Shown here piece by piece: positions 11,814 to 52,227 of a stretch of 64,000 nucleotides of DNA. The stretch is taken from assembly GCF_044324875.1 (NCBI RefSeq), contig NZ_CP172185.1. One strand, written 5' to 3'. Every line of letters starts with the position of its first letter. Position 1 is the first letter of the stretch. The notes under the pieces are model-generated. The model saw only the letters and a program-made list of their open reading frames with translations, had not been told where the DNA came from and did no database searches. Made by a program: the position numbers and the translations under genes. Origin of the DNA: Escherichia coli (GTDB lineage: Bacteria; Pseudomonadota; Gammaproteobacteria; Enterobacterales; Enterobacteriaceae).

Positions 11814-12056
11814 TTACTCAGTCACTTCCCCTTCCTGGCGGATCTGATTTGCCCAACGCTGGGCGGATTCAGGCACAGTAAACGCCGGTGAGCGCAGAAA
11901 TGACTCTCCCATCAGTACAAACGCAACATATTTGCCACGTAGCATCCAGACATCACGAAACGAATCCATCTTTATCGCATGTTCTGGCGGCGCGGGTTCC
12001 GTGCGTGGGACATAGCTAATAATCTGGCGGTTTTGCTGGCGGAGCGGTTTCTTCAT
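11814..12056 (-). CDS. cedA: Cell division modulator CedA
   Basis: MKKPLRQQNRQIISYVPRTEPAPPEHAIKMDSFRDVWMLRGKYVAF... (80 aa from internal Met of the 87-aa ORF); adjacent to katE. Confidence 0.85.
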   Translation of the reverse strand: MKKPLRQQNRQIISYVPRTEPAPPEHAIKMDSFRDVWMLRGKYVAFVLMGESFLRSPAFTVPESAQRWANQIRQEGEVTE

Positions 12057-12259
12057 TACTGGCTTCACTAAACGCATATTAAAAATCAGAAAAACTGTAG
12101 TTTAGCCGATCTAGCCCCCATACGTCCCGCTTTGCGTGTATTTCATAACACCGTTTCCAGAATAGTCTCCGAAGCGGGATCTGGCTGATGGTCTATAGTT
12201 AGAGGGTTTTTTGACCAAAACAGCGGCCCTTTCAGTAATAAATTAAGGAGACGAGTTCA

Positions 12260-14521
12260 ATGTCGCAACATAACGAAAAGAACCCACATCAGCACCAGTC
12301 ACCACTACACGATTCCAGCGAAGCGAAACCGGGGATGGACTCACTGGCACCTGAGGACGGATCTCATCGTCCAGCGACTGAACCAACACCGCCAGGTGCA
12401 CAACCTACCGCCCCAGGGAGCCTGAAAGCCCCTGATACGCGTAACGAAAAACTTAATTCTCTGGAAGACGTACGCAAAGGCAGTGAAAATTATGCGCTGA
12501 CCACTAATCAGGGCGTACGCATCGCCGACGATCAAAACTCACTGCGTGCCGGTAACCGTGGTCCAACGCTGCTGGAAGATTTTATTCTGCGCGAGAAAAT
12601 CACTCACTTTGACCATGAGCGCATCCCGGAACGTATTGTTCATGCACGCGGATCAGCAGCTCACGGTTATTTCCAGCCATATAAAAGCTTAAGCGATATC
12701 ACCAAAGCGGATTTCCTCTCAGATCCGAACAAAATCACCCCAGTATTTGTTAGGTTCTCTACCGTTCAGGGTGGTGCTGGCTCTGCCGATACCGTGCGTG
12801 ATATCCGTGGCTTTGCCACCAAGTTCTATACCGAAGAGGGTATTTTTGACCTCGTTGGCAATAACACGCCAATCTTCTTTATCCAGGATGCGCATAAATT
12901 CCCCGATTTTGTTCATGCGGTAAAACCAGAACCGCACTGGGCAATTCCACAAGGGCAAAGCGCCCACGATACTTTCTGGGATTATGTTTCTCTGCAACCT
13001 GAAACTCTGCACAACGTGATGTGGGCGATGTCGGATCGCGGGATCCCACGCAGTTACCGCACCATGGAAGGCTTCGGTATTCACACCTTCCGCCTGATTA
13101 ATGCCGAAGGGAAGGCAACGTTCGTACGTTTCCACTGGAAACCACTGGCAGGTAAAGCCTCACTCGTTTGGGATGAAGCACAAAAACTAACCGGACGTGA
13201 CCCGGACTTCCACCGCCGCGAGTTGTGGGAAGCCATCGAAGCAGGCGATTTTCCGGAATACGAACTGGGCTTCCAGTTGATTCCTGAGGAAGATGAATTT
13301 AAGTTCGACTTCGACCTTCTTGATCCAACTAAACTTATCCCGGAAGAACTGGTGCCCGTTCAGCGTGTCGGCAAAATGGTGCTCAATCGCAATCCGGATA
13401 ACTTCTTTGCCGAAAACGAACAAGCAGCATTCCATCCAGGTCATATTGTTCCTGGTCTGGACTTCACCAACGATCCCCTGTTGCAGGGACGTTTGTTCTC
13501 CTATACCGATACACAAATCAGTCGTCTTGGTGGGCCGAATTTCCATGAGATTCCGATTAACCGCCCGACCTGCCCTTACCATAATTTCCAGCGTGACGGC
13601 ATGCATCGTATGGGGATCGACACTAACCCGGCGAATTATGAACCGAACTCGATCAACGATAACTGGCCGCGCGAAACACCGCCGGGGCCGAAACGCGGCG
13701 GTTTTGAATCATACCAGGAGCGCGTGGAAGGCAATAAAGTTCGCGAGCGCAGCCCATCGTTTGGCGAATATTATTCCCATCCGCGTCTGTTCTGGCTAAG
13801 TCAGACGCCATTCGAGCAGCGCCATATTGTCGATGGTTTCAGTTTTGAGTTAAGCAAAGTAGTTCGTCCGTATATTCGTGAGCGCGTTGTTGACCAGCTG
13901 GCGCATATTGATCTCACTCTGGCCCAGGCGGTGGCGAAAAATCTCGGTATCGAGCTGACGGACGACCAGCTGAATATCACCCCGCCTCCGGACGTCAACG
14001 GTCTGAAAAAGGATCCATCCTTAAGTTTGTACGCCATTCCTGACGGTGATGTGAAAGGTCGCGTGGTAGCGATTTTACTTAATGATGAAGTGAGATCGGC
14101 AGACCTTCTGGCCATTCTCAAGGCGCTGAAGGCCAAAGGCGTTCATGCCAAACTGCTCTACTCCCGAATGGGTGAAGTGACTGCGGATGACGGTACGGTG
14201 TTGCCTATAGCCGCTACCTTTGCCGGTGCACCTTCGCTGACGGTCGATGCGGTTATTGTCCCTTGCGGCAATATCGCGGATATCGCTGACAACGGCGATG
14301 CCAACTACTACCTGATGGAAGCCTACAAACACCTTAAACCGATTGCGCTGGCGGGAGACGCGCGCAAGTTTAAAGCAACAATCAAGGTCGCTGACCAGGG
14401 TGAAGAAGGGATTGTGGAAGCTGACAGCGCCGATGGTAGTTTTATGGATGAACTGTTAACGCTGATGGCAGCACACCGCATGTGGTCACGCATTCCTAAG
14501 ATTGACAAAATTCCGGCGTAA
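12260..14521 (+). CDS. katE: Catalase HPII (large-subunit monofunctional catalase)
   Basis: 753-aa ORF; N-terminus [38 protein letters not shown] and catalase core motifs (RERIPERVVHA-type, FDRERIPER) match KatE. Confidence 0.97.
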
Positions 14522-14567: not shown

Positions 14568-16639
<2,072 letters not shown>

Positions 16640-33617: not shown

Positions 33618-35608
33618 ATGTTGCAACATTATTCAGCGTCATGGAAAAAAGGACTGACTGCACTCTGCTTACTGGCTGTTGCCGGGCTTAGCGGCTGCGA
33701 TCAAAAAGAGAATGCGGCGGCAAAAGTGGAATACGACGAACTTTCGAACAGCCAACCGCTGCGTGTCGATGCTAATAACCATACGGTAACCATGCTGGTG
33801 CAAATTAATGGTCGTTTCCTCACCGACGACACTCGTCACGGTATTGTGAACCGCCCCGGGTTTCCTGGAGAGTGTTTTATCTGTGAACTCAGGCTGCCAG
33901 ATCATCGTTTCCGATGGAAGCATAATAAGCTTTTTCTGCTTCTGCCGGTGGGATATGGCCCAGCCTTTCCAGCAATCGTCGATTGTTATACCAGTCCACC
34001 CACGTGAGTGTGGCCAGCTCCACTTCTGTCCGGTTTTTCCAGCTCTTACGGTGTATTACCTCCGCTTTGTAAAGGCCATTGATGCTCTCCGCCATCGCGT
34101 TGTCATACGAGTCACCAGTACTTCCTGTTGATGCCAGTAATCCGGCTTCCTTAAGCCGCTGTGTGTAGGCCAGCGATACATACTGAGAACCTTTATCACT
34201 GTGATGGACTGTGCCGGACGGTCGACGGGCCCATAACGCCTGCTCCAGAGCATCCAGCACGAATGTCGTTTCCATAGACGATGAGACCCGCCACCCCACG
34301 ATGTATCCGGCAAACACATCAATGATGAACGCCACATAGACGACCCCCTGCCATGTGCTGACGTAAGTAAAATCAGCCACCCACAACTGGTCAGGACGTT
34401 CTGCCACAAACTGACGGTTTACGCGGTCGCCTGCGGCAACGGCTTTCCGGCTGACGGTAGTGCGGACCTTTTTACCCCGGAGAACACCGGCAAGTCCCAT
34501 AACCGCCATGAGGCGCGCCACTGTACATCTGGCTACCCTGATTCCTTCCCGTAACAACTGACGCCAGACTTTACGCACACCGTATACCTGATGATTCCCA
34601 TCGTATACGCGCAGTATCTCTTTCTTCAGCCAGTCATCGCGCTGCGCACGGGCACTGCGTTTATCCGGATGATGTCGCTGTTGCTGACAGTGGTAATACG
34701 TTGACGGGGCAATATGTAGTTCACTGCATACCGGTCCGACCCCGTACAGCTTACGCAGCTTATCCAGCAGTGGCATCACTTTTTCCAGAGGCGGTCGAAC
34801 TCCGCCTTCGCAAAATAAGCGGAAGCCTGGCGAAGGATATCGTTACTGCGGCGCAGTTCACGATTTTCACGTTCCAGCTCTTTCAGACGCTGACGTTCAG
34901 CGGTGGTGAGCCCGCCATCACCGCCTCCGGTATCCCGCTCATGCTGGCGTACCCAGACACGCAGAGTCTCCGGTGTACAGCCAATCTTTGGGGCAATGGA
35001 ACAAATTGCCGCCCACTGTGAGTCATATTCGCCCTGACTTTCCAGAACCATACGAATCGCCCTCTGACGGACTTCGGGGGAAAAACGAGTATTTTTAGTC
35101 ATTCTGTTTACCTCTTTCTCAGGGAGTTTAGTCTCCAGGATTCCCGGGGCGGTTCATTGTGTTTAAAGATGGCTCCAACGGACATAAATCGCTGTTTATG
35201 GGTTATGCGACCCCGAAAGCATTTTATGAAGCCCTGAAAGAGGCAGGTGGTACACCGGGCGAAAACATGACGATGGATAATAAAGAAACGACTCATGTCA
35301 CAGGCAGCAAACTGGATATTTCGGTCAACTGGCAAGGGGCGGCAAAAGCGTATTCCTTCGATGAAGTGATTGTTGACAGTAATGGCAAGAAACTGGACAT
35401 GCGCTTTGGCGGTAATTTAACGGCAGCAGAAGAGAAGAAAACGGGCTGCCTGGTGTGTCTGGATAGCTGCCCGGTCGGCATCGTCAGCAATGCAACATAC
35501 ACTTATGGTGCGGTTGAAAAACGAGGTGAAGTTAAATTCAAAGGCAATGCCTCGGTTCTCCCGGCGGATAACACGCTGGCAACGGTTACCTTTAAAATCA
35601 CCGAATAA
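33618..35608 (+). pseudogene. ydjY: ydjY interrupted by IS629
   Basis: 5' part 33618..33846 (MLQHYSASWKKGLTALCLLAVAGLSGC…TRHGI) and 3' part 35157..35608 (VFKDGSNGHK…TFKITE) are in frame once the 1310-bp IS and one copy of the TTG duplication are removed. Confidence 0.8.
33847..35156 (-). mobile_element. IS629-like insertion sequence (IS3 family), copy 2, 1310 bp, inverted relative to copy 1
   Basis: Same termini; orfA 34776..35102 identical to copy 1; orfB 33889..34779 differs by a few residues (e.g. HPDKR vs HPYKR); 3-bp TSD TTG on both flanks. Confidence 0.85.
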
Positions 35609-36878: not shown

Positions 36879-37065
36879 GGAGGGTACTACCTTCACTTCT
36901 ACCTCTGCCTCCCAAACTCCGTAAAACTCATGCACAATCACCATATTACAGTCAACCCGAACATTATGAGCTCCACTGAATTCTACTGTTCACCCCCTAA
37001 ATCAAGCATAAAATGGGGGCATATTTGGGGGCCCATTGTGTTCAGTCAGTTTCAGGAGCCCCCAT

Positions 37066-38253
37066 ATGGCACTTACAGCCAGACAAGTCGAAACAGCCAA
37101 ACCTAAAGACAAAGATTATAAACTCTCTGATGAACGTGGTTTATATCTGCTGGTAAAAACCACGGGAGCACGCTACTGGCGCTTTAAGTACAGGATAGCA
37201 GGAAAGGAGAAAAAACTGTCCTTCGGTGTCTATCCTGACGTCTCCCTTGCAGAAGCCAGAACCAAACGCGACGATGCAAGGAAAATTATCTCCGAGGGCG
37301 GTGATCCCGGTGAAAAGAAACGAAGGGAAAAACTCTCACAGAAAATCTCTGTCACCAACACCTTCCATGCTCTCGCAATCGAATGGCATCATCATAAATC
37401 TTTATCATGGTCTGACAGTTACGCCAGAAGCGTACTGGAAGCTCTGGATAAAGACGTTTTCCCGTATCTGAGCAACCGGAGCGTTACTGATATCCTTCCA
37501 CTGGAAATGCTGGAAATACTACGTCGAATTGAAAAACGAGGCTCTCTGGAAAAACTACGCAAGGTCCGGCAATACTGCAATCAGATTTTCCGTTATGCCA
37601 TAGCCACAGGACGAGCCACTGTCAATCCAGCCTCAGAACTGAGCAGCACGCTGGCGGCACCAAAAACCGCACATTTTCCCCATCTGAGAGCGGATGAACT
37701 TCCTGTTTTTCTCCGGAAGCTCGCTGACTATCACGGCAGTCCTGTCACTCGTATGGCTACAAACCTGCTGATTCTGACCGGGCTCAGAACGATTGAATTG
37801 CGACTGGCCGAATGGTCAGAAATTGATTCTAGCAACGCACTCTGGCATATCCCTAGAGAGAGAATGAAAATGCGCCGGCCTCATATTGTTCCTCTGTCAC
37901 GCCAGGTCATTTCTGTTCTGCAGGAATTACATGGTTTTACCGGACAGTATCGCCTTATGCTACCCGGACGTTGCGATGTAAACAAACCTATGAGTGAAGG
38001 CTGCATCAATATGGTGCTCAAACGTATCGGTTACGATGGCAGGGCAACCGGTCATGGTTTTCGTCACACCATGAGTACCATTCTGCACGAACAGGGCTTT
38101 AATTCTGCCTGGATTGAAATGCAGTTAGCTCATGTGGATAAAAACTCCATCAGGGGTACCTATAATCATGCACATTATCTCGATGGTCGCCGTAAAATGA
38201 TGCAGTGGTACGCTGATTACATTGATTCTCTTATGGGAAAAACGCACAAATGA
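37066..38253 (+). CDS. int: P4-type tyrosine integrase (phage/island integrase)
   Basis: MALTARQVETAKPKDKDYKLSDERGLYLLVKTTGARYWRFKYR… typical P4-like N-terminus; catalytic region HGFRHT…RGTYNHAHY; RBS CAGGAG upstream. Confidence 0.85.
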   Translation: MALTARQVETAKPKDKDYKLSDERGLYLLVKTTGARYWRFKYRIAGKEKKLSFGVYPDVSLAEARTKRDDARKIISEGGDPGEKKRREKLSQKISVTNTFHALAIEWHHHKSLSWSDSYARSVLEALDKDVFPYLSNRSVTDILPLEMLEILRRIEKRGSLEKLRKVRQYCNQIFRYAIATGRATVNPASELSSTLAAPKTAHFPHLRADELPVFLRKLADYHGSPVTRMATNLLILTGLRTIELRLAEWSEIDSSNALWHIPRERMKMRRPHIVPLSRQVISVLQELHGFTGQYRLMLPGRCDVNKPMSEGCINMVLKRIGYDGRATGHGFRHTMSTILHEQGFNSAWIEMQLAHVDKNSIRGTYNHAHYLDGRRKMMQWYADYIDSLMGKTHK

Positions 38254-43716: not shown

Positions 43717-43989
43717 ATGTGGTTATCTGTGCTGGCGTTTGGCAGACAGGCCGAAGCACTGGCCAGACACCAGAAAGGCGAACTGGTAAGCGTGGCAGGT
43801 AACATGCAGGTCAGCCAGTGGACAGGGCAGAACGGGAAAACGCGGCAGGGACGGCAGGTTATCGCAGACAGCGTAATCAGTACTCAAACGGTGCGGCCAG
43901 GAGGAAGCAGACGCGAAACCACAGGTACACAGGGTAATCAGCCACCAACGGGAGGCGACGCCACTTACGGAGATGATATACCCTTATGA
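43717..43989 (+). pseudogene. ssb: Single-stranded DNA-binding protein, N-terminally truncated
   Basis: …LAFGRQAEALARHQKGELVSVAGNMQVSQWTGQNGKTRQGRQVIADSV… resembles the SSB OB-fold C-terminal half, with Gly/Gln-rich tail and acidic DDIPL terminus; N-terminal about 55 residues absent. Confidence 0.6.
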
Positions 43990-44006
43990 ATTAAGCGGGG
44001 CGCAAC

Positions 44007-44327
44007 ATGAACAACAGCACACTGAAGAGCCGGACAATAAGCGACGCGACAGCGGAAGAACTCGAGAGCAGGGGACTGTGGCGACGTGCTGCCAGAAGGT
44101 GGCAGGATGTGATGATTACTCTTGAGAAAGACAGTCACAGACAGCTTGCAGTAATGAGAGCAAGGGAATGTATCAGGAAGGCAAAACGCCCGATACCTGA
44201 AAGCCGTATTGATATTCATACAGTCAGAAAGGCCGCAGACAGGACAATACAAAAAATGGGGCTACCGTCGCTTACTGATGAAATATGGCGCGATTACCCT
44301 GATAGCGTTAACGATGACGGTTATTAA
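44007..44327 (+). CDS. PerC-family transcriptional regulator (Pch-like)
   Basis: 106-aa ORF with PerC signature AEELESRGLWRRAARRW. Confidence 0.6.
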   Translation: MNNSTLKSRTISDATAEELESRGLWRRAARRWQDVMITLEKDSHRQLAVMRARECIRKAKRPIPESRIDIHTVRKAADRTIQKMGLPSLTDEIWRDYPDSVNDDGY

Positions 44328-44610
44328 CTGGCGGGGGAAACACGATACCAGCGGGCGTGACTCGGGAGAATATATACCGCTGGTGGAACATTACCAGCCC
44401 TGATGGCTGGTGGCGTGCGTTACGACCTGAAAGACCATCCATGCGGGAAGGTGACACAGGAGCACCTGGCGAACGCGGGGAAGCGACTGGATGAGATTAA
44501 GAAAAAACAGCAGGAGCGCAGAAAAAGTAACCGTCTCATTAAAACGTCTTTCGCCTCCCTTTCCTGTTTCCTATGCTAATGTCCATTTTCGCAGTAAAAG
44601 GACATTTACG

Positions 44611-44859
44611 ATGAATGCACGAAAGGCGGTACTGGCAGATAATCCGGAATTGATCCTGCGTTTGCTACAACTGAAATTTGACGAGACACTGTCGTACCCG
44701 CGCATTTCTGCACAGACCGGTGTCAGCAAAACCGCTATTTTTTCTCTGGTGAGGCGATTTCATCAGGTATTCACTGACGGGCATCTTTCTGGTGAATATT
44801 CCTGCGTGCAACTGACCGGGCTCTTTTCCCGGGGCGATAATATTCAGCCCCGACAGTGA
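44611..44859 (+). CDS. Hypothetical small protein, possible HTH regulator
   Basis: ORF from MNARKAVLADNPELILRLLQLKFDETLSYPRISAQTGVSKTAIFSLVRRF… with HTH-like segment. Confidence 0.3.
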   Translation: MNARKAVLADNPELILRLLQLKFDETLSYPRISAQTGVSKTAIFSLVRRFHQVFTDGHLSGEYSCVQLTGLFSRGDNIQPRQ

Positions 44860-44879: not shown

Positions 44880-45110
44880 AAAACCCGTCGGAACCGATTT
44901 TCACCAGAGTAAAAATGGAGACTTGTTCAGCAAACTCTTTTACCCGGAGCCTGTGTGGCCCAGATTGCACGAGAGTCTGGCATCAATGATAATGTTATTT
45001 TCAAATGGCTCAGACTCTGGCAAAACGAAGGGCGTGTTTCGCGGCGTCTTCCGGTAACAACCACTTCTGACGCAGGCGTTGAATTATTACCTATGGAGAT
45101 AACGCCGGAT
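44880..45110 (+). pseudogene. IS3-family transposase OrfA remnant
   Basis: KTRRNRFSPE followed out of frame by AQIARESGINDNVIFKWLRLWQNEG (HTH of IS3-family OrfA). Confidence 0.5.
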
Positions 45111-45663
45111 GAGCAGAAAGATCCGATGATTCCCCTACCGCCAGCTTTTCGCCTGCGCCGGTATACGTTTCTTTATCTTTGCCCTGCATCACCCACAGGC
45201 TGGCTCCGCCGATAATGGCGTTTTGTGGTGCATCTTTCGCGTCAGCGTCGTAAGGCATCATGCCTACGCCGTAGTTGAATTTGGCGTACTCGCGAATGTT
45301 GGCAAGAGAACCGGAAGAGGCGGTGGTCATCGCGCAATCACCTCTATAGAACTTCTCGGTGGATTCATCCTTACGCCCGACGTAGATGAAGTCGCCCTTC
45401 TTGTTCATCTCCTCGAGCATGACGATGTGTTTCACCTGCTCCGGCTTGTTGAACTCCAGCACCGCGTCCGTGGCGTCAAAACCGTTGTTTTTGCTGGCAA
45501 ACGGCAGACCGTTCCTGGCGCTAAAGTTTTCCAGTTGTATCCACCTCTTTGCCCATTTCCCCTTCCATAGAGTTCCAAAACGGAATGGTCGTCACTGCCT
45601 GTGCATTGCCCATTAACGCCAGTCCGAGCACCAGTGATGAAGCTGTATAATGTAACGGTTTCA
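45091..45663 (-). pseudogene. ugpB: sn-glycerol-3-phosphate-binding protein UgpB remnant (internal deletion, 3' truncation)
   Basis: [30 protein letters not shown] (N-terminus) then jump to [36 protein letters not shown]…[17 protein letters not shown], then divergence near 45100. Confidence 0.65.
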
Positions 45664-46419
45664 TCGTTTATCTCTCTTGCTTGTTGTACCTGATGTGCAA
45701 ATTCACTCGTTTTATGCTCGCGGGATTACATATCATGCCCGAATTGCAGAAAAATAACTTTTTATTACATGTGTAAGACAGTAAAACCTCAGAAAGATGA
45801 CAGTGTGGTGCCGGCGCGGGTGAGGAAAAATGGAAGATGGGGAATGTATAAGCGGGAAAATAGGAGGGCCTGTGGATTGTAGATAATGTGCTCATCGTTT
45901 TCATGCCGGATGAGACATAAACACTTTTATCTGAGCATTTCTATGTATTCGGACAGTTGTTCTTGGCATCCAATGGTGCAGGTTCTGTAGTGTGTGGTGG
46001 TAGCAATAGCCTCAGCTTCATTACAATATTTATTATCTCAAACATTCAAATGTCCTTGGCCCACTTTGATAGTCACTTTGTCGTGGTTATTATGTCTTTC
46101 CTTTTCCTAAAGCCCCATTATCTGTGCTGCAGCTTTCCCTCCATCAACGAACCAACAACCAGCAATGCCTGTCCCCCATAACAGCCCGGAAAATGGCACA
46201 TTCTCAGATGATTTATCCCGCGAGCTATCCCGCCTACAGCTAATCGACCTGTTTAATACATCTTGACAGTCTGCTGGCAAGGTTACCCTTCCCAATATTG
46301 TCCGTTTTTAACATATCTAATACGAGCCCCCATCAAATATGCTTCGTGTTCACTGTAAGTGACTAAAAGTGCTGTCTGCCCTGCCTCATGCAAAATATCA
46401 CGAACTTCACGGCTCAGTC

Positions 46420-46921
46420 CTACCCTTGTTTTTTATCCAAGCTGGAAAATGGTTCATCTAGCAACAGGATATCTGGATTTGGAACCAGTGACCTTGCAAG
46501 GGCAATACGTTGCTGCTGACCTCCTGAAAGTTCATGAGGATAGCTGTCTGAATAGTGGAATAAATCCACCATTTTCAACAGTTCTGTAACTCTGGTTCGC
46601 TGTACATCTCTCGGCAGTCTTCTCAGACCAAAGCCACGTTTTGTGAAACTGTAAGGTGGGGAAAGAGCGCATATTCCTGAAAGACTATACCGACATGACA
46701 TTTCTCCGGCGGAAAATGCATATCTGCGCTGGCCACACAATGCTGTGATACAAAAATTTCCCCTTGTTCAGGCGCTCAAAACCAGCTACAGCACGTAGTA
46801 CTGTTGTTTTTCCACAACCTGATGTACCAAGCAGACATGCCAGTTCACCTTTACAGACTGACATACCCCCCGCCCCGCAATACAGGATATGGGCTATTGG
46901 GATAAACAACATGGACATCAT
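46420..46921 (-). pseudogene. ABC transporter ATPase (Fe3+/thiamine-type), frameshifted
   Basis: Walker A GTSGCGKTT (46685..46921) and ABC signature [15 protein letters not shown] plus Walker [12 protein letters not shown] (46420..46740) in different frames. Confidence 0.6.
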
Positions 46922-46951
46922 TAATACATAAAGCTGTTTCTTCAGACATAA

Positions 46952-47552
46952 TCAATCCTCTGATTTCAGTCTTTCAGCTGGAACAAACAAAATAACCGGA
47001 AATGTCCCTGCAAGAACAATCATTAAAGCAGAGATGGCCCCTTCTTCAAAAGTTCCACGGGCTGCTTCAGCATAAAGAAGTGTTACTGGCAGTTCTTTCA
47101 TCGCATCAGTGAAAACCAGCAGGGCACTGCTCACCAGAGCAACACAGGAAAGTGAACCCGAACAAAAGTTCCTGTACCATTTTCTCCCAGCAGACGTGAG
47201 GCTTGTTCCAGTGACGCTGGTATACGTCCCAGCCGGACATCAAGTGCGCCGATGGCTATTGCCTGAAATCGCATCGTACAGCAAATCACCAACAGGACAC
47301 CGACAGACATTAAAGGTAACCCCCTGTAATCCAGTAGTTCCGCCAGCCAGCGGTCATTTAGGGAGTCAGAAAACCAATCGCCAGAATCGTGCCCGGAAAG
47401 GCATAACCCAGCGACGCCCCTCTCATCACACCGCGCCTGAACAGTGGCATAGCGTTGAGGAATTCCGGGCATTCCAGACTACGAGCAGACTGACAAAAAT
47501 TACGACAAAGCGTTGAAGGAAGCCAGCGCGCGGACTGACAGGACTTTACCAT
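46952..47552 (-). pseudogene. ABC transporter permease (binding-protein-dependent, AfuB/FbpB-like), fragmented
   Basis: Three consecutive short ORFs with permease features, including an EAA-loop-like RIPASLEQASRLLGENGTGTFVRVHFPVL. Confidence 0.5.
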
Positions 47553-47822
47553 AAAAACACAGGCTAACCGCGCCTGCGTTTTTAATGACGGATGAAACAG
47601 AATCAGGTGCCGATTATGCCGCCGTCGGCTTTTACGATAACGACAGTTGAGGAGCGCGGACGACCAGCCTTATCGCCGTCAGGCCAGCTTGATACTGCCG
47701 TCGGATGCTGCGGATCGCTAAGCTGCGTATTCCGCTCTATTCGATCACGGATTGGCATCGAAGTCCGATCAGCGATTCGCATCCATTCGATCAACCGGGA
47801 ACTTAACTTTTTCTACCGCTTT

Positions 47823-48578
47823 TTAACGCGTTTTTTCGCTGCTTTCCACTACCGGGGGATTTTTCCTCAGTGACTCTCCCTGAAGGACCACTCGGTGTGA
47901 GTTATGTACCAGTCTGTCCAGGATGGCATCTGCTGTTGTTGGGTTCTCCATCAGACCATGCCATTTATCTACCGGGAACTGGCTTACCACTATCGTGCTG
48001 CTTTGTCCGTAACGATCCTCTATGAGCTCCAGAAGGTCATTACACTGGGCGTTACTTAACTGTTCCAGCCCCAGATCGTCCAGGATTAGAACCTGTATTT
48101 TTTGCAACTGTTTCAGATATTTCAGCCAGCTGCCATCAACACGTCCCTGAGCCAGTTGTTCCAGTAATCGCCCGGTTCTACAGTACCGGACGCTGTGTTT
48201 CTGTCGACATGCCTGTTCGCCCAGCGCATTGGCTATCCAGCTCTTGCCACATCCTGTCGGACCGGTTATCAGCAGGTTTTTCCTGTGGGTTATGTAGTGG
48301 CCGTTCAGCAGTTCTCTCATCTGTTCAGCCCGCAGACCTCTTGAGGCCGGATAGCGCAGCCCTTCCGGTGTTGCCTGGTATTTCAGGCCGGCATTTTTTC
48401 TCAACCGTGCCACACGGCTGTTTTCCCTGCTCAGAAGCTCGTCATCAACCAGCAGCGTCAGCCTTTCCTCGAACGACAGTTCGTCGTAGGTCTGAGGCGT
48501 TTCCCGCTGCCGTATCAGGCTCCCGGCCATCGCCGGGAGTTTCAGTTGGGTCAGTTTGTTTAACAGGTTATCACTCAT
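47823..48578 (-). CDS. istB: IS21-family helper ATPase IstB
   Basis: MSDNLLNKLTQLKLPAMAGSL… with Walker A GPTGCGKS and Walker B VLILDDLG. Confidence 0.8.
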   Translation of the reverse strand: MSDNLLNKLTQLKLPAMAGSLIRQRETPQTYDELSFEERLTLLVDDELLSRENSRVARLRKNAGLKYQATPEGLRYPASRGLRAEQMRELLNGHYITHRKNLLITGPTGCGKSWIANALGEQACRQKHSVRYCRTGRLLEQLAQGRVDGSWLKYLKQLQKIQVLILDDLGLEQLSNAQCNDLLELIEDRYGQSSTIVVSQFPVDKWHGLMENPTTADAILDRLVHNSHRVVLQGESLRKNPPVVESSEKTR

Positions 48579-48594
48579 ACTGTTGTTCCTTCTG

Positions 48595-50160
48595 TCAGTG
48601 GTAGTAGCCCGGACCACGCAGGTTTTCATGCTCTGAAGCATATGCCGGATGTTGTTCGCCCTGGCGGGATAATGGAAGCTCCAGGTTCTCCCGATGGTGA
48701 CGCAGCAGATTGTCGATAAAGCGTCTGTCAGGGGCGTTATAGTGCAGGGCAACGTAACAGGCCTTTTCCAGCCGTTCCGGGCCGTATTTTTTCTGAAGTG
48801 CCAGCAGCCCCAGAACTGCACGATAAGCCAGTTCCGGATGGGGTTTTGCCTTCAGCATGGATTCAACCACCCGGCCTGTGGACGGGCCCGTACGTTTTCC
48901 CTGCTCGATCAGGCGTTCCGGTGTCCATGTCCCGTGCTGCCGGTGGCGCTCTGGCATGTGAAGCGGATTGGTTGTGTGTTTATATTCATGTGTGCTGCGC
49001 GGATGTTGCGCCACACACTGCCCCTTGTGCCAGAGCTGTACCACCGACTGCCCCGCCTTCAGTGACAGACGCTGACCGACCAGTTCGTGTGGAACGGAGT
49101 ACCAGTGACGGGCATATTCAACGTGGTAGTCAGGGCCAACCTTCACAGCTTTGTATTCCGTGTATTCATAAGGTGCCAGAGGCAGCGGAGAGAGTGCTGG
49201 CGCATCCAGTATGCGGAAGCGTTCTGCACGGGTTTGATTGCCGTACCCCTTCATTGGCCGGTTATTCATGTCTGTCAGTAACTCCCTAAGGCGCGCATTC
49301 AGCGCCCTGAGCGTGTGGAAGGTTTCATTACGGATGCGGGCAAGAAGCCATCGTTCAACGATGAGGACGCCGTTTTCTGCTTTTGGTTTATCTTTAGGTT
49401 TGCGTGGTCGGGCCGGGATGATAACCGTGCCATAGTGCTCAGCCAGTGCCTGATAACTGTCGTTGATGACAGGCTCATATCGATCGGCCTTTTTCACTGC
49501 GCTTCTGAGGTTATCGGGGATGAGCAGCTTCGGTACGCCGCCCAGGAAGGTCAGGCAACGGCTGTGGGCATTTAACCATGACATCATGTCCTGACCTTCG
49601 CACGCTTCAACGTAGGTATAGTTGGACGCCCCCATTACGGCCACGAAGATTGCCACGCGGCGTATCTCACCGGTGTCCGGATTAATAACAGGAACCGTAG
49701 GACCACAGAAGTCGATAAAAAGCTTTTCGCCGGCACGATGCTCCTGGCGCATGGAGAGACGTCGCGTTTTTTTCCACTCCCGGTAGCAACGGCAGAAGTG
49801 CGAGTATCCCATCGCTTTGTTACCCGCCTGTGCCTTGTATTCCATCCACAACAGTTGCCGCGTCACACCTGGTTTTCTCATTTCCGTATCGAAGTACAAC
49901 ATGTCAGGCATTACAAGCTCTGATGCAAAGGTGTCTTTGGGCGGAAAAATGAGTTTCTCCAGCGTGTCATGGGATATATCAGCAGGTAATGGCCATGACA
50001 GAGAAGAGGCTTTGAAGCGGGCAAGAACCTCAAAAACGGTTGAGGCGCTGATGTGTAACGTCAGTCCGATACAACGGTTAGTCAGCTTCTTGTCGAACTT
50101 GAGCTGAAGGATCTTAAAACAGGTTTCCATAGTGCTCCTGGATTTTCTCTTTCTGGACAT
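48595..50160 (-). CDS. istA: IS21-family transposase IstA
   Basis: About 510-520 aa with HTH N-terminus and DDE integrase core; start codon uncertain (ORF extends to 50241). Confidence 0.75.
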   Translation of the reverse strand: MSRKRKSRSTMETCFKILQLKFDKKLTNRCIGLTLHISASTVFEVLARFKASSLSWPLPADISHDTLEKLIFPPKDTFASELVMPDMLYFDTEMRKPGVTRQLLWMEYKAQAGNKAMGYSHFCRCYREWKKTRRLSMRQEHRAGEKLFIDFCGPTVPVINPDTGEIRRVAIFVAVMGASNYTYVEACEGQDMMSWLNAHSRCLTFLGGVPKLLIPDNLRSAVKKADRYEPVINDSYQALAEHYGTVIIPARPRKPKDKPKAENGVLIVERWLLARIRNETFHTLRALNARLRELLTDMNNRPMKGYGNQTRAERFRILDAPALSPLPLAPYEYTEYKAVKVGPDYHVEYARHWYSVPHELVGQRLSLKAGQSVVQLWHKGQCVAQHPRSTHEYKHTTNPLHMPERHRQHGTWTPERLIEQGKRTGPSTGRVVESMLKAKPHPELAYRAVLGLLALQKKYGPERLEKACYVALHYNAPDRRFIDNLLRHHRENLELPLSRQGEQHPAYASEHENLRGPGYYH

Positions 50161-50241
50161 TGACGTCTCCACTGGTTTAAACACGGCAATGGAGACTGTG
50201 GTGAAAAGAGTTAATTCCCGGAGTGACTGGCAGGATGCCAA

Positions 50242-52227
50242 TCAATGATCGGAAGCATGCCAAATCGTGATCGATTGTGATGCCAAACTGTGATCGGAGA
50301 TGGATGCCAAATCATGATCGATTCGAATGCCAAACTGCGATCGATTCAGATGCCATTTTGCACTAAGCCCTTCGCTTGGCTCGCCAGGGTGCTGGATGTT
50401 AATAAACAGCGTCCGGTTATCCGGAGTGAACGCGATGCCGGTGATTTCGCAGCCGCGCGGGCCGGTCAGGAAGCGGCGGAACTCATTGGTACCGGGAATC
50501 GTCGCCACCATCTGGTTGTTGCCCATGCCTTTGTAATCTTTAATATTTATGGTTGATGACGACACGTCGGTCTGGATCCATAGCACGCCGCGGTGATCGA
50601 AGCTCAGGCCATCGGCGCTGCCGAATTCCGCACCCTTCATGCTGCCTTTGGTTTCCGGTTTGTCTGTATCGGTGCGACCGCCCATCACAAGAATATCCCA
50701 GGCAAACTGCAGCGCGGTCGGGTCACCGTTATGCTCCAGCCAGTGAATGATGTGGCCGTAAACGTTTTTGGCGCGCGGGTTGGCCGCATCCACTGGCGCT
50801 TTTCCTTCCTTACCGCGATCGCTGTTGTTGGTGAGCGTGCAGTAAACGCTGCCGGCGTGATATGGATCGACCGCAATCCACTCCGGGCGGTCCATTTTAG
50901 TGGCCCCCACGGCGTCTGCCGCCAGACGGGTTTTAATCAACAGGTCGCCCTGGTTTTCAAACCCTTTACTGGCGTCGAGCCCATTTTGTCCGAACACCAG
51001 CGGTAGCCACTCGCCTTTGCCGTCGTCGTTAAATTTCGCCACGTACAGAGTGCCTTTTTCCAGCAGGTGCATGTTGGCTTTGCGATCCTGCGGGTTGAAT
51101 TTTCCTTCCGAGACAAATTTATATATGTATTCGAATTTCTGGTCATCGCCCATATAGACCACAACGCGGTTATCCGGGGCAATTGTCACCGCTGCGCCTT
51201 CGTGTTTGATGCGACCAAGCGCGGTGTGCTTGCGCGGCACTGAATGCGGATCGTATGGATCGATTTCCACCACCCAGCCGAAGCGGTTCGGCTCGTTCGG
51301 CGTGGCGTCGACGCTGAACCTTTTATCCACTTCGTTCCAGCGGTAAGAGTCGTCGCTCCCGCTGATACCGTAACGTTTTTCCAGCGGGTTCATCTCTGCT
51401 TTTTTTACGAAAATATCGGACCAGTTCTCTTCACACGTCAGATAGGTGCCCCACGGCGTAAATCCGTTGGCACAGTTCTGCATGGTGCCGAGAATGATTT
51501 CGCCTTTCGGATCGTCAACTGTTTGCATCAGTGGGTTATGCAGCGCCGGACCGGTGATTTTCATCGGCGTGTTAACGGTGATGCGGCGTGCGAACGATGA
51601 CGGGCGCACCACTTCCCAGCCCAGGGGCACTTTTTTTACTTCAATGACCGACACGCCCATCGCGTTCTGGCCTTTAAGAGCTTTATCGGCGCTCCAGTTG
51701 GCATCGCCATCTTTAAACAGTAGACCGTTATCGATGTATTCATGGTTTATGGCAAGCAGGCCGTGATCGGAGCTGTTCCCGCCCTGCGGCAGGCTAAACC
51801 ACGCCATGCCGTCGTGGTGCATCCCGGCCTGCGCCGCCTGTTCTTCCGTGGTGTTGCTACCGTCGGTTTTAAAAACCGGCAGATTTCCGGCAATCCCGGT
51901 GGCGTCGCCCCATTTGTAGAAGGGCTTCGCGATGTATCCTTCCGGCACGATAACGGTATCTTCCGTGGAAACCGGCAGGCTGGTGAAACCGAGCGTCGTC
52001 GCTTTGCCGAGGTTACCGCTTGCTTTGGAGACCACTTTCGCCAGCGCGTTTTCCTGTTTCAGCAGAAATGGGAACGCTGCCGCGGCACCGGCGACCGTGC
52101 CTGCCTGTAACAGACGGCGGCGTGACAAATAGACTTCCGCCACCTGCGAAAACGCGCGGTTATCGCTCGGGTTACTGATTTCTTCACTATGCTCACGTTT
52201 GAATAAAGTTTTTAACGGTCTGCCCAT
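50242..52227 (-). CDS. Tat-signal secreted PhoX-family (DUF839) phosphatase-like protein; C-terminus replaced by IS21-derived codons
   Basis: 661-aa ORF; twin-arginine motif SRRRLLQAGTVAGAAAA; beta-propeller-like repeats; last about 40 codons read through the IS21 terminal repeats. Confidence 0.45.
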   Translation of the reverse strand: MGRPLKTLFKREHSEEISNPSDNRAFSQVAEVYLSRRRLLQAGTVAGAAAAFPFLLKQENALAKVVSKASGNLGKATTLGFTSLPVSTEDTVIVPEGYIAKPFYKWGDATGIAGNLPVFKTDGSNTTEEQAAQAGMHHDGMAWFSLPQGGNSSDHGLLAINHEYIDNGLLFKDGDANWSADKALKGQNAMGVSVIEVKKVPLGWEVVRPSSFARRITVNTPMKITGPALHNPLMQTVDDPKGEIILGTMQNCANGFTPWGTYLTCEENWSDIFVKKAEMNPLEKRYGISGSDDSYRWNEVDKRFSVDATPNEPNRFGWVVEIDPYDPHSVPRKHTALGRIKHEGAAVTIAPDNRVVVYMGDDQKFEYIYKFVSEGKFNPQDRKANMHLLEKGTLYVAKFNDDGKGEWLPLVFGQNGLDASKGFENQGDLLIKTRLAADAVGATKMDRPEWIAVDPYHAGSVYCTLTNNSDRGKEGKAPVDAANPRAKNVYGHIIHWLEHNGDPTALQFAWDILVMGGRTDTDKPETKGSMKGAEFGSADGLSFDHRGVLWIQTDVSSSTINIKDYKGMGNNQMVATIPGTNEFRRFLTGPRGCEITGIAFTPDNRTLFINIQHPGEPSEGLSAKWHLNRSQFGIRIDHDLASISDHSLASQSITIWHASDH

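Follow-up and report, generated by a model that had tools for sequence, protein, structure and literature searches.

The window analysed here is a 64,000-nucleotide stretch of Escherichia coli DNA in which a fragment of the solute-binding protein gene ugpB lies on the minus strand, inside a genomic island. The question raised by this locus is whether the fragment is a copy of the host's own ugpB that moved and degenerated, or the remains of a different gene. A first-pass annotation made from the sequence had described it as a translocated, decayed copy of ugpB with its 5' region. The decay and the non-native context were borne out, but the source proved to be a separate island lineage and not the gene of the host. 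What is left is an unremarkable pseudogene within a mosaic genomic island, and it is very probably the non-functional relic of an accessory, island-borne ugpB that was captured and then decayed stepwise.

Alignment with K-12 ugpB and its upstream region, and with island copies in other genomes, placed the remnant at 45664→45148 and showed that it comprises codons 1-41, an internal deletion of 461 bp, and codons 195 to about 326. The first segment (cds 1-121; 45544..45664, minus strand), already recognised in the first-pass annotation as the signal peptide and the first 40 or so residues, starts with the ATG at 45664 and encodes a 23-residue signal peptide and 18 mature residues. It is identical at 121/121 positions to the copy in strain EC17CM2, at 117/121 to the intact copy in EC6563 and at 113/121 to K-12. 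The second segment (cds 583 to about 977; 45148..45543, minus strand), identified by alignment and by Pfam and NCBIfam matches, is out of frame with the ATG and shares 372 of 388 bases with K-12. Across the 509 coding bases the remnant is 93-96% identical to K-12 in both retained segments, far more than chance would give, and the homology that ties it to ugpB extends through a 258-bp 5' region. The reading had been expected to resume at about residue 218 and to continue to about residue 335. It actually resumes at codon 195 (W-I-Q-L-E199-N-F-S-A-R204, i.e., ENFSAR from residue 199, with W204R), and ugpB homology ends at codon 324-326 or thereabouts, followed by read-through into foreign DNA.

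The deletion (cds 122-582; junction at 45543..45544, minus strand, by alignment) is out of frame and has the same junction in EC17CM2. Because 461 bp is not a multiple of three, the ATG-started open reading frame stops after 47 codons, at 45521 (45521..45664, minus strand, in the ORF list). It encodes UgpB residues 1-41, D and TTGKL before the stop codon, and in RefSeq, as annotated on the identical sequence of strain SCU-115, it is the hypothetical protein WP_001470085.1. The remainder of the gene, when read in the frame of ugpB, is no more than a piece lacking a start codon, and the sequence at 45148..45543 is labelled in RefSeq as a pseudogene, 'extracellular solute-binding protein'. A 123-aa ORF with a GTG start (45091-45462) consists of this ugpB piece and the read-through into foreign DNA. 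It matched Pfam SBP_bac_8 with an E value of 1.6e-08 and the NCBIfam UgpB equivalog NF008211 with 212.6 bits (E 7.6e-63; profile positions 225-335). Although it is the largest in-frame piece, it stays below the curated whole-protein cut-off of 411 bits, whereas the intact island relative scores 932.4 bits.

The deleted codons 42-194 include precursor residues E89 and W192, which correspond to mature Glu66 and Trp169 (mature numbering, PDB 4AQ4), both ligand-binding residues of E. coli UgpB (bioRxiv 10.1101/529602). A continuous ORF with the signal peptide, both lobes and these two residues is no longer present in the remnant, and in place of the permease genes ugpA and ugpE and the ATPase gene ugpC an IS66 tnpA fragment lies 3' of it. 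With a frameshifting deletion and a 3' truncation, and with intact copies of the same lineage in EC6563 and strain 135, the remnant is a pseudogene and is non-functional as a binding protein; the only translatable ATG product is the 47-residue peptide, a signal peptide with a short tail. The first-pass annotation had suggested a search for microhomology at the deletion endpoints, and it was found there: the endpoints share TGGAT in K-12-type sequence and read TGAAT/TGGAT in extant intact island alleles.

The surroundings of the fragment are those of an island. As anticipated, neither liv genes nor ugpA flank it; ABC-transporter remnants and phoX lie upstream and an insertion sequence remnant lies downstream. 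The latter had been taken for an IS3-family remnant, but it is an internal piece of an IS66-family tnpA (44942..45148, plus strand), covering by nucleotide comparison about nt 84-290 of 426 and truncated at both ends. It is 90% identical over 183 bp to an intact IS66-like tnpA (L085), with weaker homology to about 45148, and its PGAP name is 'IS66-like element accessory protein TnpA, frameshifted'. Neither tnpB nor tnpC accompanies it, as would be expected together with terminal inverted repeats for a complete IS66 element, so that it is a remnant and not an element. The 86-aa ORF of this remnant gave only a weak HTH_23 match and no IS3-family assignment. Since the junction between ugpB and IS66 falls inside tnpA and not at an IS terminus, it is a scar of deletion or illegitimate recombination rather than a simple insertion.

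Directly upstream of the ugpB 5' region are frameshifted remnants of an ABC importer (46283..47506, minus strand), namely an Fe3+-type permease without its N-terminus and a PotA/PhnT-like ATPase, identified from the PGAP annotation of SCU-115, Pfam ABC_tran and NCBIfam. Further upstream is phoX, encoding the alkaline phosphatase PhoX (PF05787, 553 bits; 50363..52227, minus strand), which is cut after about codon 622 by an IS21-family insertion at 47724-50362, as judged against the uninterrupted PhoX of EC17CM2 and from the break in synteny. In SCU-115 the order is iha, ICE remnants, PhoX, Fe3+-type ABC permease pseudogene, ABC ATPase pseudogene and ugpB relic, followed by the IS66 tnpA relic, ProQ/FinO-like, PerC, SSB, further genes, a P4-type integrase and ynjA. 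The island of the window thus adjoins ynjA, and no tRNA gene was found in the window.

In SCU-115, where the fragment is present at 100% identity, the native livF-ugpB-ugpA-ugpE-ugpC-ugpQ-yhhA-ggt locus is intact and lies at 3.42 Mb, 2.9 Mb away from the fragment. An intact ugpBAECQ elsewhere in the genome, which the first-pass annotation had proposed to look for, therefore exists in a carrier of the identical fragment, and the fragment does not sit in the native ugp context. In 5,422 of 5,426 complete E. coli genomes a match was found to 80% or more of the length of the ugpB cassette (promoter, coding sequence and 3' flank). Only 185 of the 5,426 matched the island cassette at 95% or more, all of them with a second ugpB copy, and complete genomes contain roughly 270 extra ugpB places in all; the remaining best matches, which are native loci, were 90-95% identical, and the sampled natives 91-93%. 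The coding sequence of the intact island gene is 94.9% identical to K-12 and 93.7% to the native allele of SCU-115. Among the matches listed it is 94.2% identical to L005, a GTDB representative labelled E. coli, and 93.9% to E. albertii, and it is 85% identical to Pseudocitrobacter, the next genus among those matches. Among the matches listed by a cross-species protein scan with the intact island protein, the Escherichia representatives were one labelled E. coli and one E. albertii, and E. fergusonii, E. marmotae and E. ruysiae did not appear. Compared with K-12, dS is 0.21, dN/dS is 0.07 and 13 amino acids differ; such a low dN/dS indicates that purifying selection acted on the island gene during most of the time in which it diverged.

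Where the island lineage is intact (about 185 genomes), an IS110 remnant and then a gene for a phytase-like esterase invariably come after ugpB. The exact protein WP_000803221.1, present in strain 135 and many others, occurred in 5,224 blocks of the assembly collection, and the phytase-like gene lay about 1.5 kb downstream in 10 of the 10 places listed among these. Some of the listed intact ugpB places adjoin speC-yqgA and a P4-type integrase, surroundings which we take from the K-12 map to be the pheV neighbourhood. Many genomes of the window type (for example strain 135, TUM1886, Ch1 and GF4) also have an intact island copy elsewhere. On both sides the homology of the cassette to the native locus breaks off within REP sequence, upstream in a REP remnant about 258 bp from the gene and downstream in the REP that lies 47 bp past the stop codon, at the start of the IS110-family remnant. 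No trace of ugpA was found after the stop codon of intact island ugpB. No plasmid-borne island allele was found either, the plasmid matches being only mislabelled chromosomes and native ugpB of Klebsiella. These comparisons indicate that the fragment descends from a distinct island-borne ugpB lineage and not from the present native gene of its host. In strains with the relic, uptake of G3P and glycerophosphodiesters depends on the intact native ugpBAECQ and, in many of them, presumably also on a further, intact island ugpB. No description of an island ugpB was found in the literature searched on E. coli genomic and pathogenicity islands. The tkt1 island is a different locus (metE-ysgA), and a paper on O104:H4 refers to native ugpB.

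Three stages of the island gene could be distinguished in the context of PhoX and the ABC remnants. In EC6563 and three other genomes, ugpB is intact (1317 bp, 438 aa) and is followed by an IS110-family pseudogene and then by the phytase-like esterase gene (PF13449). In EC17CM2 and one other genome, the same 461-bp deletion is present, while the 3' end of the gene and the continuation into IS110 and the phytase-like gene are still intact. In the window type, ugpB is both deleted and truncated within the same PhoX, ABC-remnant and ugpB context. Over the 15.8 kb that end at 45148, the window shares 99.2-99.8% identity with EC17CM2; from that point on the two diverge. The identical 901 bp are present in 48 complete E. 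coli records, and 46 complete records contain the ugpB part at an identity of at least 99%; the window type is 100% identical in 46-49 complete genomes. The simplest order suggested by these sequences is from intact to deleted and then to truncated.

The 5' region (about 258 bp; 45665..45922, minus strand), with promoter, leader and RBS, aligns with the upstream region of native ugpB, and its left boundary falls inside the REP remnant (GTTTATGTCTCATCCGGCATGA). It is 79.5% identical to K-12, 76-78% identical to the SCU-115 native allele, L005 and E. albertii, and 100% identical in the island copies L001, L003 and L004. The CTGTCAT-like motifs pointed out in the first-pass annotation turned out to be four phased Pho-box-like heptamers, CTGTCAT / CTGAGGT / CTGTCTT / CATGTAAT, with an 11-bp period (45764..45814, minus strand). 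On a crude consensus score out of 14 against CTGTCATnnnnCTGTCAT they reach 11, 11, 10 and 11, compared with 11, 11, 10 and 9 for the aligned K-12 array; the whole window contains, on both strands, 12 sites with at least 11/14, three of them within 45814-45764. The K-12 ugp promoter repeats aligned with the array are known from the ugp literature as functional PhoB sites. The region thus has the arrangement by which a PhoB-dependent promoter is recognised in sequence, i.e., at least two CTGTCAT-like 7-bp repeats at an 11-bp period upstream of a -10 element and in place of a -35 element. The intact island copies have exactly this array, and also the same RBS, ATG and AT-rich CATAAA resembling a -10 element.

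The island promoter taken whole has about 26-32 private substitutions in 195 bp, against 2-5 in each of four native lineages from E. coli to E. albertii, and on these counts it has drifted at about the synonymous (neutral) rate. The Pho-box-bearing promoter is structurally preserved and may still fire under phosphate starvation, with nothing useful known downstream of it. A scan for sigma-70 promoters and terminators returned counts equal to those of shuffled sequence, and Rfam gave no known RNA family between 42000 and 53000. Upstream of phoX and of the phytase-like gene there were weak Pho-box matches alone (9-10/14), which were not counted as evidence.

The second retained segment is itself a mosaic. 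At 20 informative sites the pattern of island-type (E) and native-type (K) states was EEEE-KKKKKKKKKK-EEEEEE, with four sites 5' and six sites 3' of a tract of 10 consecutive native-type bases (cds 657-827; 45299..45469, minus strand) embedded in island-type sequence. By our own arithmetic, the chance of 10 K states falling in a single run is 11/C(20,10), or about 6e-5. The interval 45295-45485 is 96.9% identical (185/191) to common native, K-12-like alleles, and cds 645-830 is 91.4% identical to the island type. Since both EC6563 and EC17CM2 are island-type in this tract, and EC17CM2 shares the deletion of the window, the native-type tract is derived in the window lineage, through gene conversion. 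The host's own native allele was considered as the source of the tract and rejected, as the SCU-115 native allele is 94% identical to it and the common K-12-like alleles 96.9%; the conversion therefore probably took place in an earlier host.

Substitutions were also found to be clustered at the junctions. Over more than 1,100 aligned bp, the deleted island copies differ from the intact ones at six sites, none of them farther than 35 bp from the deletion junction (cds 87, 91, 109, 114, 588 and 610). Six further substitutions are unique to the window copy, every one of them inside the converted tract or at its margin (cds 645-783), and two more are 5-6 bp from the IS66 junction. The substitutions of these clusters match no native allele. 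The most economical reading of the clusters would be error-prone repair synthesis at each of the events; alternatively, they could be remains of an old divergence that escaped when intact copies later homogenised the rest of the sequence.

Taken together, the history of the locus may be reconstructed as follows. A ugpB cassette with its promoter, coding sequence and 47 bp of 3' flank, bounded by REP sequences on both sides, would have been captured from a divergent Escherichia lineage; that the capture was REP-bounded is suggested by the cassette boundaries, and by these only. IS621, a member of the IS110 family, targets REP sequences, and the capture could have been aided by such REP-targeting IS110-family elements. 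The captured cassette would then have settled in mosaic islands beside genes for phosphate-ester hydrolases, with phoX upstream in this type of island and the phytase-like esterase downstream. The stepwise decay that came next is shown by the comparison between genomes. A deletion of 461 bp between the short direct repeats TGGAT took away codons 42-194 and shifted the frame. Through gene conversion, a native-type E. coli ugpB replaced a patch of about 170-200 bp, either before or after the truncation. Illegitimate recombination or deletion joined codon 326 or so to the middle of an IS66-family tnpA, an event in which ugpB lost its 3' end and in which the IS110 remnant and the phytase-like gene disappeared.

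This reading of an island relic that was captured and dismantled in steps has to be weighed against others. A recent duplication and translocation of the present host's native ugpB, with subsequent decay in place, would account for the facts that the fragment is clearly ugpB, 95% identical to K-12, and that one internal tract is native-like. It is, however, very improbable, because the fragment, apart from the converted tract, is 100% island-type in its promoter and 3' part and only 90.7-90.9% identical to the SCU-115 native allele over the same segments, the promoter is only about 80% identical to every native promoter examined, and intact and half-decayed island-type copies occur in identical context in other strains. 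Hardly any credence can be given to the idea that the fragment belongs to a different, distantly related solute-binding protein gene or is an assembly chimera. The PGAP label is indeed generic ('extracellular solute-binding protein'), but at the nucleotide level the fragment is about 95% identical to ugpB, its top NCBIfam match is the UgpB equivalog without any competitor, with the intact relative at 932 bits against the 411-bit cut-off, and the same sequence and junctions recur in 46-49 independently assembled complete genomes. A first-pass caveat that the protein might be only a distant relative of UgpB is thus answered as well.

It could also be argued that the remnant was co-opted, as a decoy for PhoB binding, as a starvation promoter for the 47-aa ORF, or as a source of antisense transcription into the IS66 tnpA, ProQ/FinO-like and PerC genes, which lie downstream of it in convergent orientation. 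The preservation of the Pho-box-like array, CATAAA, RBS and ATG, the RefSeq annotation of the 47-aa ORF, and the lack of any terminator-like site on the minus strand from 45664 to 44400 would be in line with such a role. Nonetheless, we consider it improbable as read from the sequence. All window-type copies are 100% identical, so their preservation may only reflect recency and carries no signal of selection; moreover, the end of the ORF is an accidental product of the frameshift, and drift across the entire island promoter has been close to the neutral rate. The island relic with stepwise decay is consequently preferred here. A more far-reaching version of it, which is possible but doubtful at present, is that the fragment is the relic of a functional mobile module for scavenging organophosphates, carried on ExPEC/APEC islands, and that the junction clusters are a record of error-prone break repair. 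In such a module an orphan UgpB paralogue, expressed from a drifted promoter of its own with Pho boxes and unaccompanied by cognate permease genes, would dock onto UgpAEC of the native operon and act in concert with the neighbouring PhoX and phytase-like esterase.

In comparison with known systems, the fragment has the same start codon, signal peptide and coding sequence as native E. coli ugpB (b3453), the first gene of the PhoB-dependent ugpBAECQ operon, and a homologous 5' region with the phased Pho-box array at an equal distance from the ATG. It differs from native ugpB in lying in an island, in the absence of codons 42-194 and of those beyond about 326, in having no ugpAECQ downstream, and in its promoter, which is about 20% diverged and has a 4-bp insertion beside the RBS. 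The intact island paralogue (WP_072643672.1 in EC6563; WP_000803221.1) is much closer, since its promoter is 100% identical, its coding sequence shows few or no differences once the junction clusters and the converted tract are set aside, and the upstream context is shared with EC6563. The paralogue has a complete 438-aa ORF (932 bits) and, on its 3' side, the IS110 remnant and the phytase-like esterase gene, all of which are missing from the window copy. The island GI-pheV (PLoS Genet 2024, PMC11537424) is likewise made up of mosaic modules with IS remnants between them, losses by deletion and recombined patches. However, ugpB, phoX and the phytase-like gene are not mentioned in that paper (PMC11537424), and the island of the window adjoins ynjA, with no tRNA gene found in the window.

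Based on these results, the fragment itself is of little weight for the biology of its carriers, as it is a dead piece that is automatically annotated as a pseudogene, and the native ugp operon of its carriers still works. Its value is that of a marker, since it drew attention to an accessory lineage of ugpB that had not been described. About 3% of complete E. coli genomes have an intact copy of that lineage, and many of these genomes come from poultry or from human, often clinical, sources. The phytase-like esterase gene 3' of every intact copy examined, together with phoX upstream in the present island, points to a candidate module, horizontally carried, for phosphate scavenging. Moreover, the three-stage series, the conversion patch and the mutation clusters at the junctions provide a small case study of how a cargo gene of a genomic island is dismantled.

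Point substitutions in the ugpB relic were confined to tight clusters at the deletion junction (45538-45578), inside the gene-conversion tract (45343-45481) and at the IS66 junction (45154-45155), and outside these clusters the relic was identical to its relatives. In the promoter of the island ugpB, about 26-32 private substitutions were counted in an aligned 195-bp stretch (45665-45860), against 2-5 each in K-12, SCU-115, the species representative labelled E. coli (L005) and E. albertii. The same promoter carries a 4-bp insertion (CAAG) adjoining the RBS, and an 11-bp segment was kept in the island copy, E. albertii and L005 but is missing in K-12 and SCU-115.

A gene for a PhoX-family alkaline phosphatase (phoX, 50363-52227; 11339-13318 in the island copy L003) is located within the genomic island (PF05787, 553 bits); to our knowledge, phoX lies outside the E. 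coli core genome. Only a weak Pho-box-like match was present upstream of phoX, and the Fe3+/PhnT-like ABC importer that follows the gene survives only as frameshifted remnants. The 3' end of phoX is interrupted after codon ~622 by a 2.6-kb IS21-family element (47724-50362; istA 48595-50241, istB 47823-48821) with a 6-bp duplication, through which the final ~37 residues of PhoX have been replaced. In a comparison with SCU-115, EC17CM2 and EC6563, this insertion was found in none of the three strains.

Intact accessory copies of ugpB are part of a module in which the gene is followed by an IS110 pseudogene and then by a phytase-like esterase (PF13449), as in the comparison loci L085 (13880-18034), L003 (15257-19411) and L088-L097. 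About 185 complete E. coli genomes and thousands of assemblies carry this module in conserved form. The module is hosted by several island contexts, some of which adjoin speC-yqgA and a P4-type integrase, and in most of the places shown it is followed downstream by MurR/RpiR, PTS EIICB, NanE and MliC.

The island edge in the present contig is marked by a P4-type tyrosine integrase (37036-38253; Arm-DNA-bind_3, Phage_int_M and Phage_integrase domains), which adjoins ynjA. ARAGORN found no tRNA gene in the whole 64-kb window, and therefore a tRNA gene does not seem to serve as the attachment site of the island at this position. Just past the IS66 relic lies a small gene cluster (43717-44859) of the kind typically seen in the leading region of plasmids or ICEs. 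It comprises a PerC-family regulator (44007-44327; PF06069, 97 bits) with an SSB-like ORF and a short ProQ/FinO-family ORF beside it, all convergent with the ugpB relic. Elsewhere in the window, SCU-115 lacks a segment of about 1.3 kb (33849-35155) that separates the xthA side from ydjX and contains a 296-aa ORF on the minus strand (33889-34779). This ORF shares identical 18-mers, in inverted orientation, with a plus-strand ORF of equal length (15632-16522, within the region ~15600-16550), and the two regions are probably two copies of one IS.

Within E. coli, the native ugpB shows unusually high polymorphism. Nucleotide identity between the K-12 allele and the native SCU-115 allele, from a comparison of L087 28349-29665 with L002 6010-7326, was 95.9%, and dS between K-12 and L005 (~0.21) was close to that between K-12 and E. 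albertii (0.25). These values suggest that recombination or old allelic lineages have shaped the native ugpB locus.
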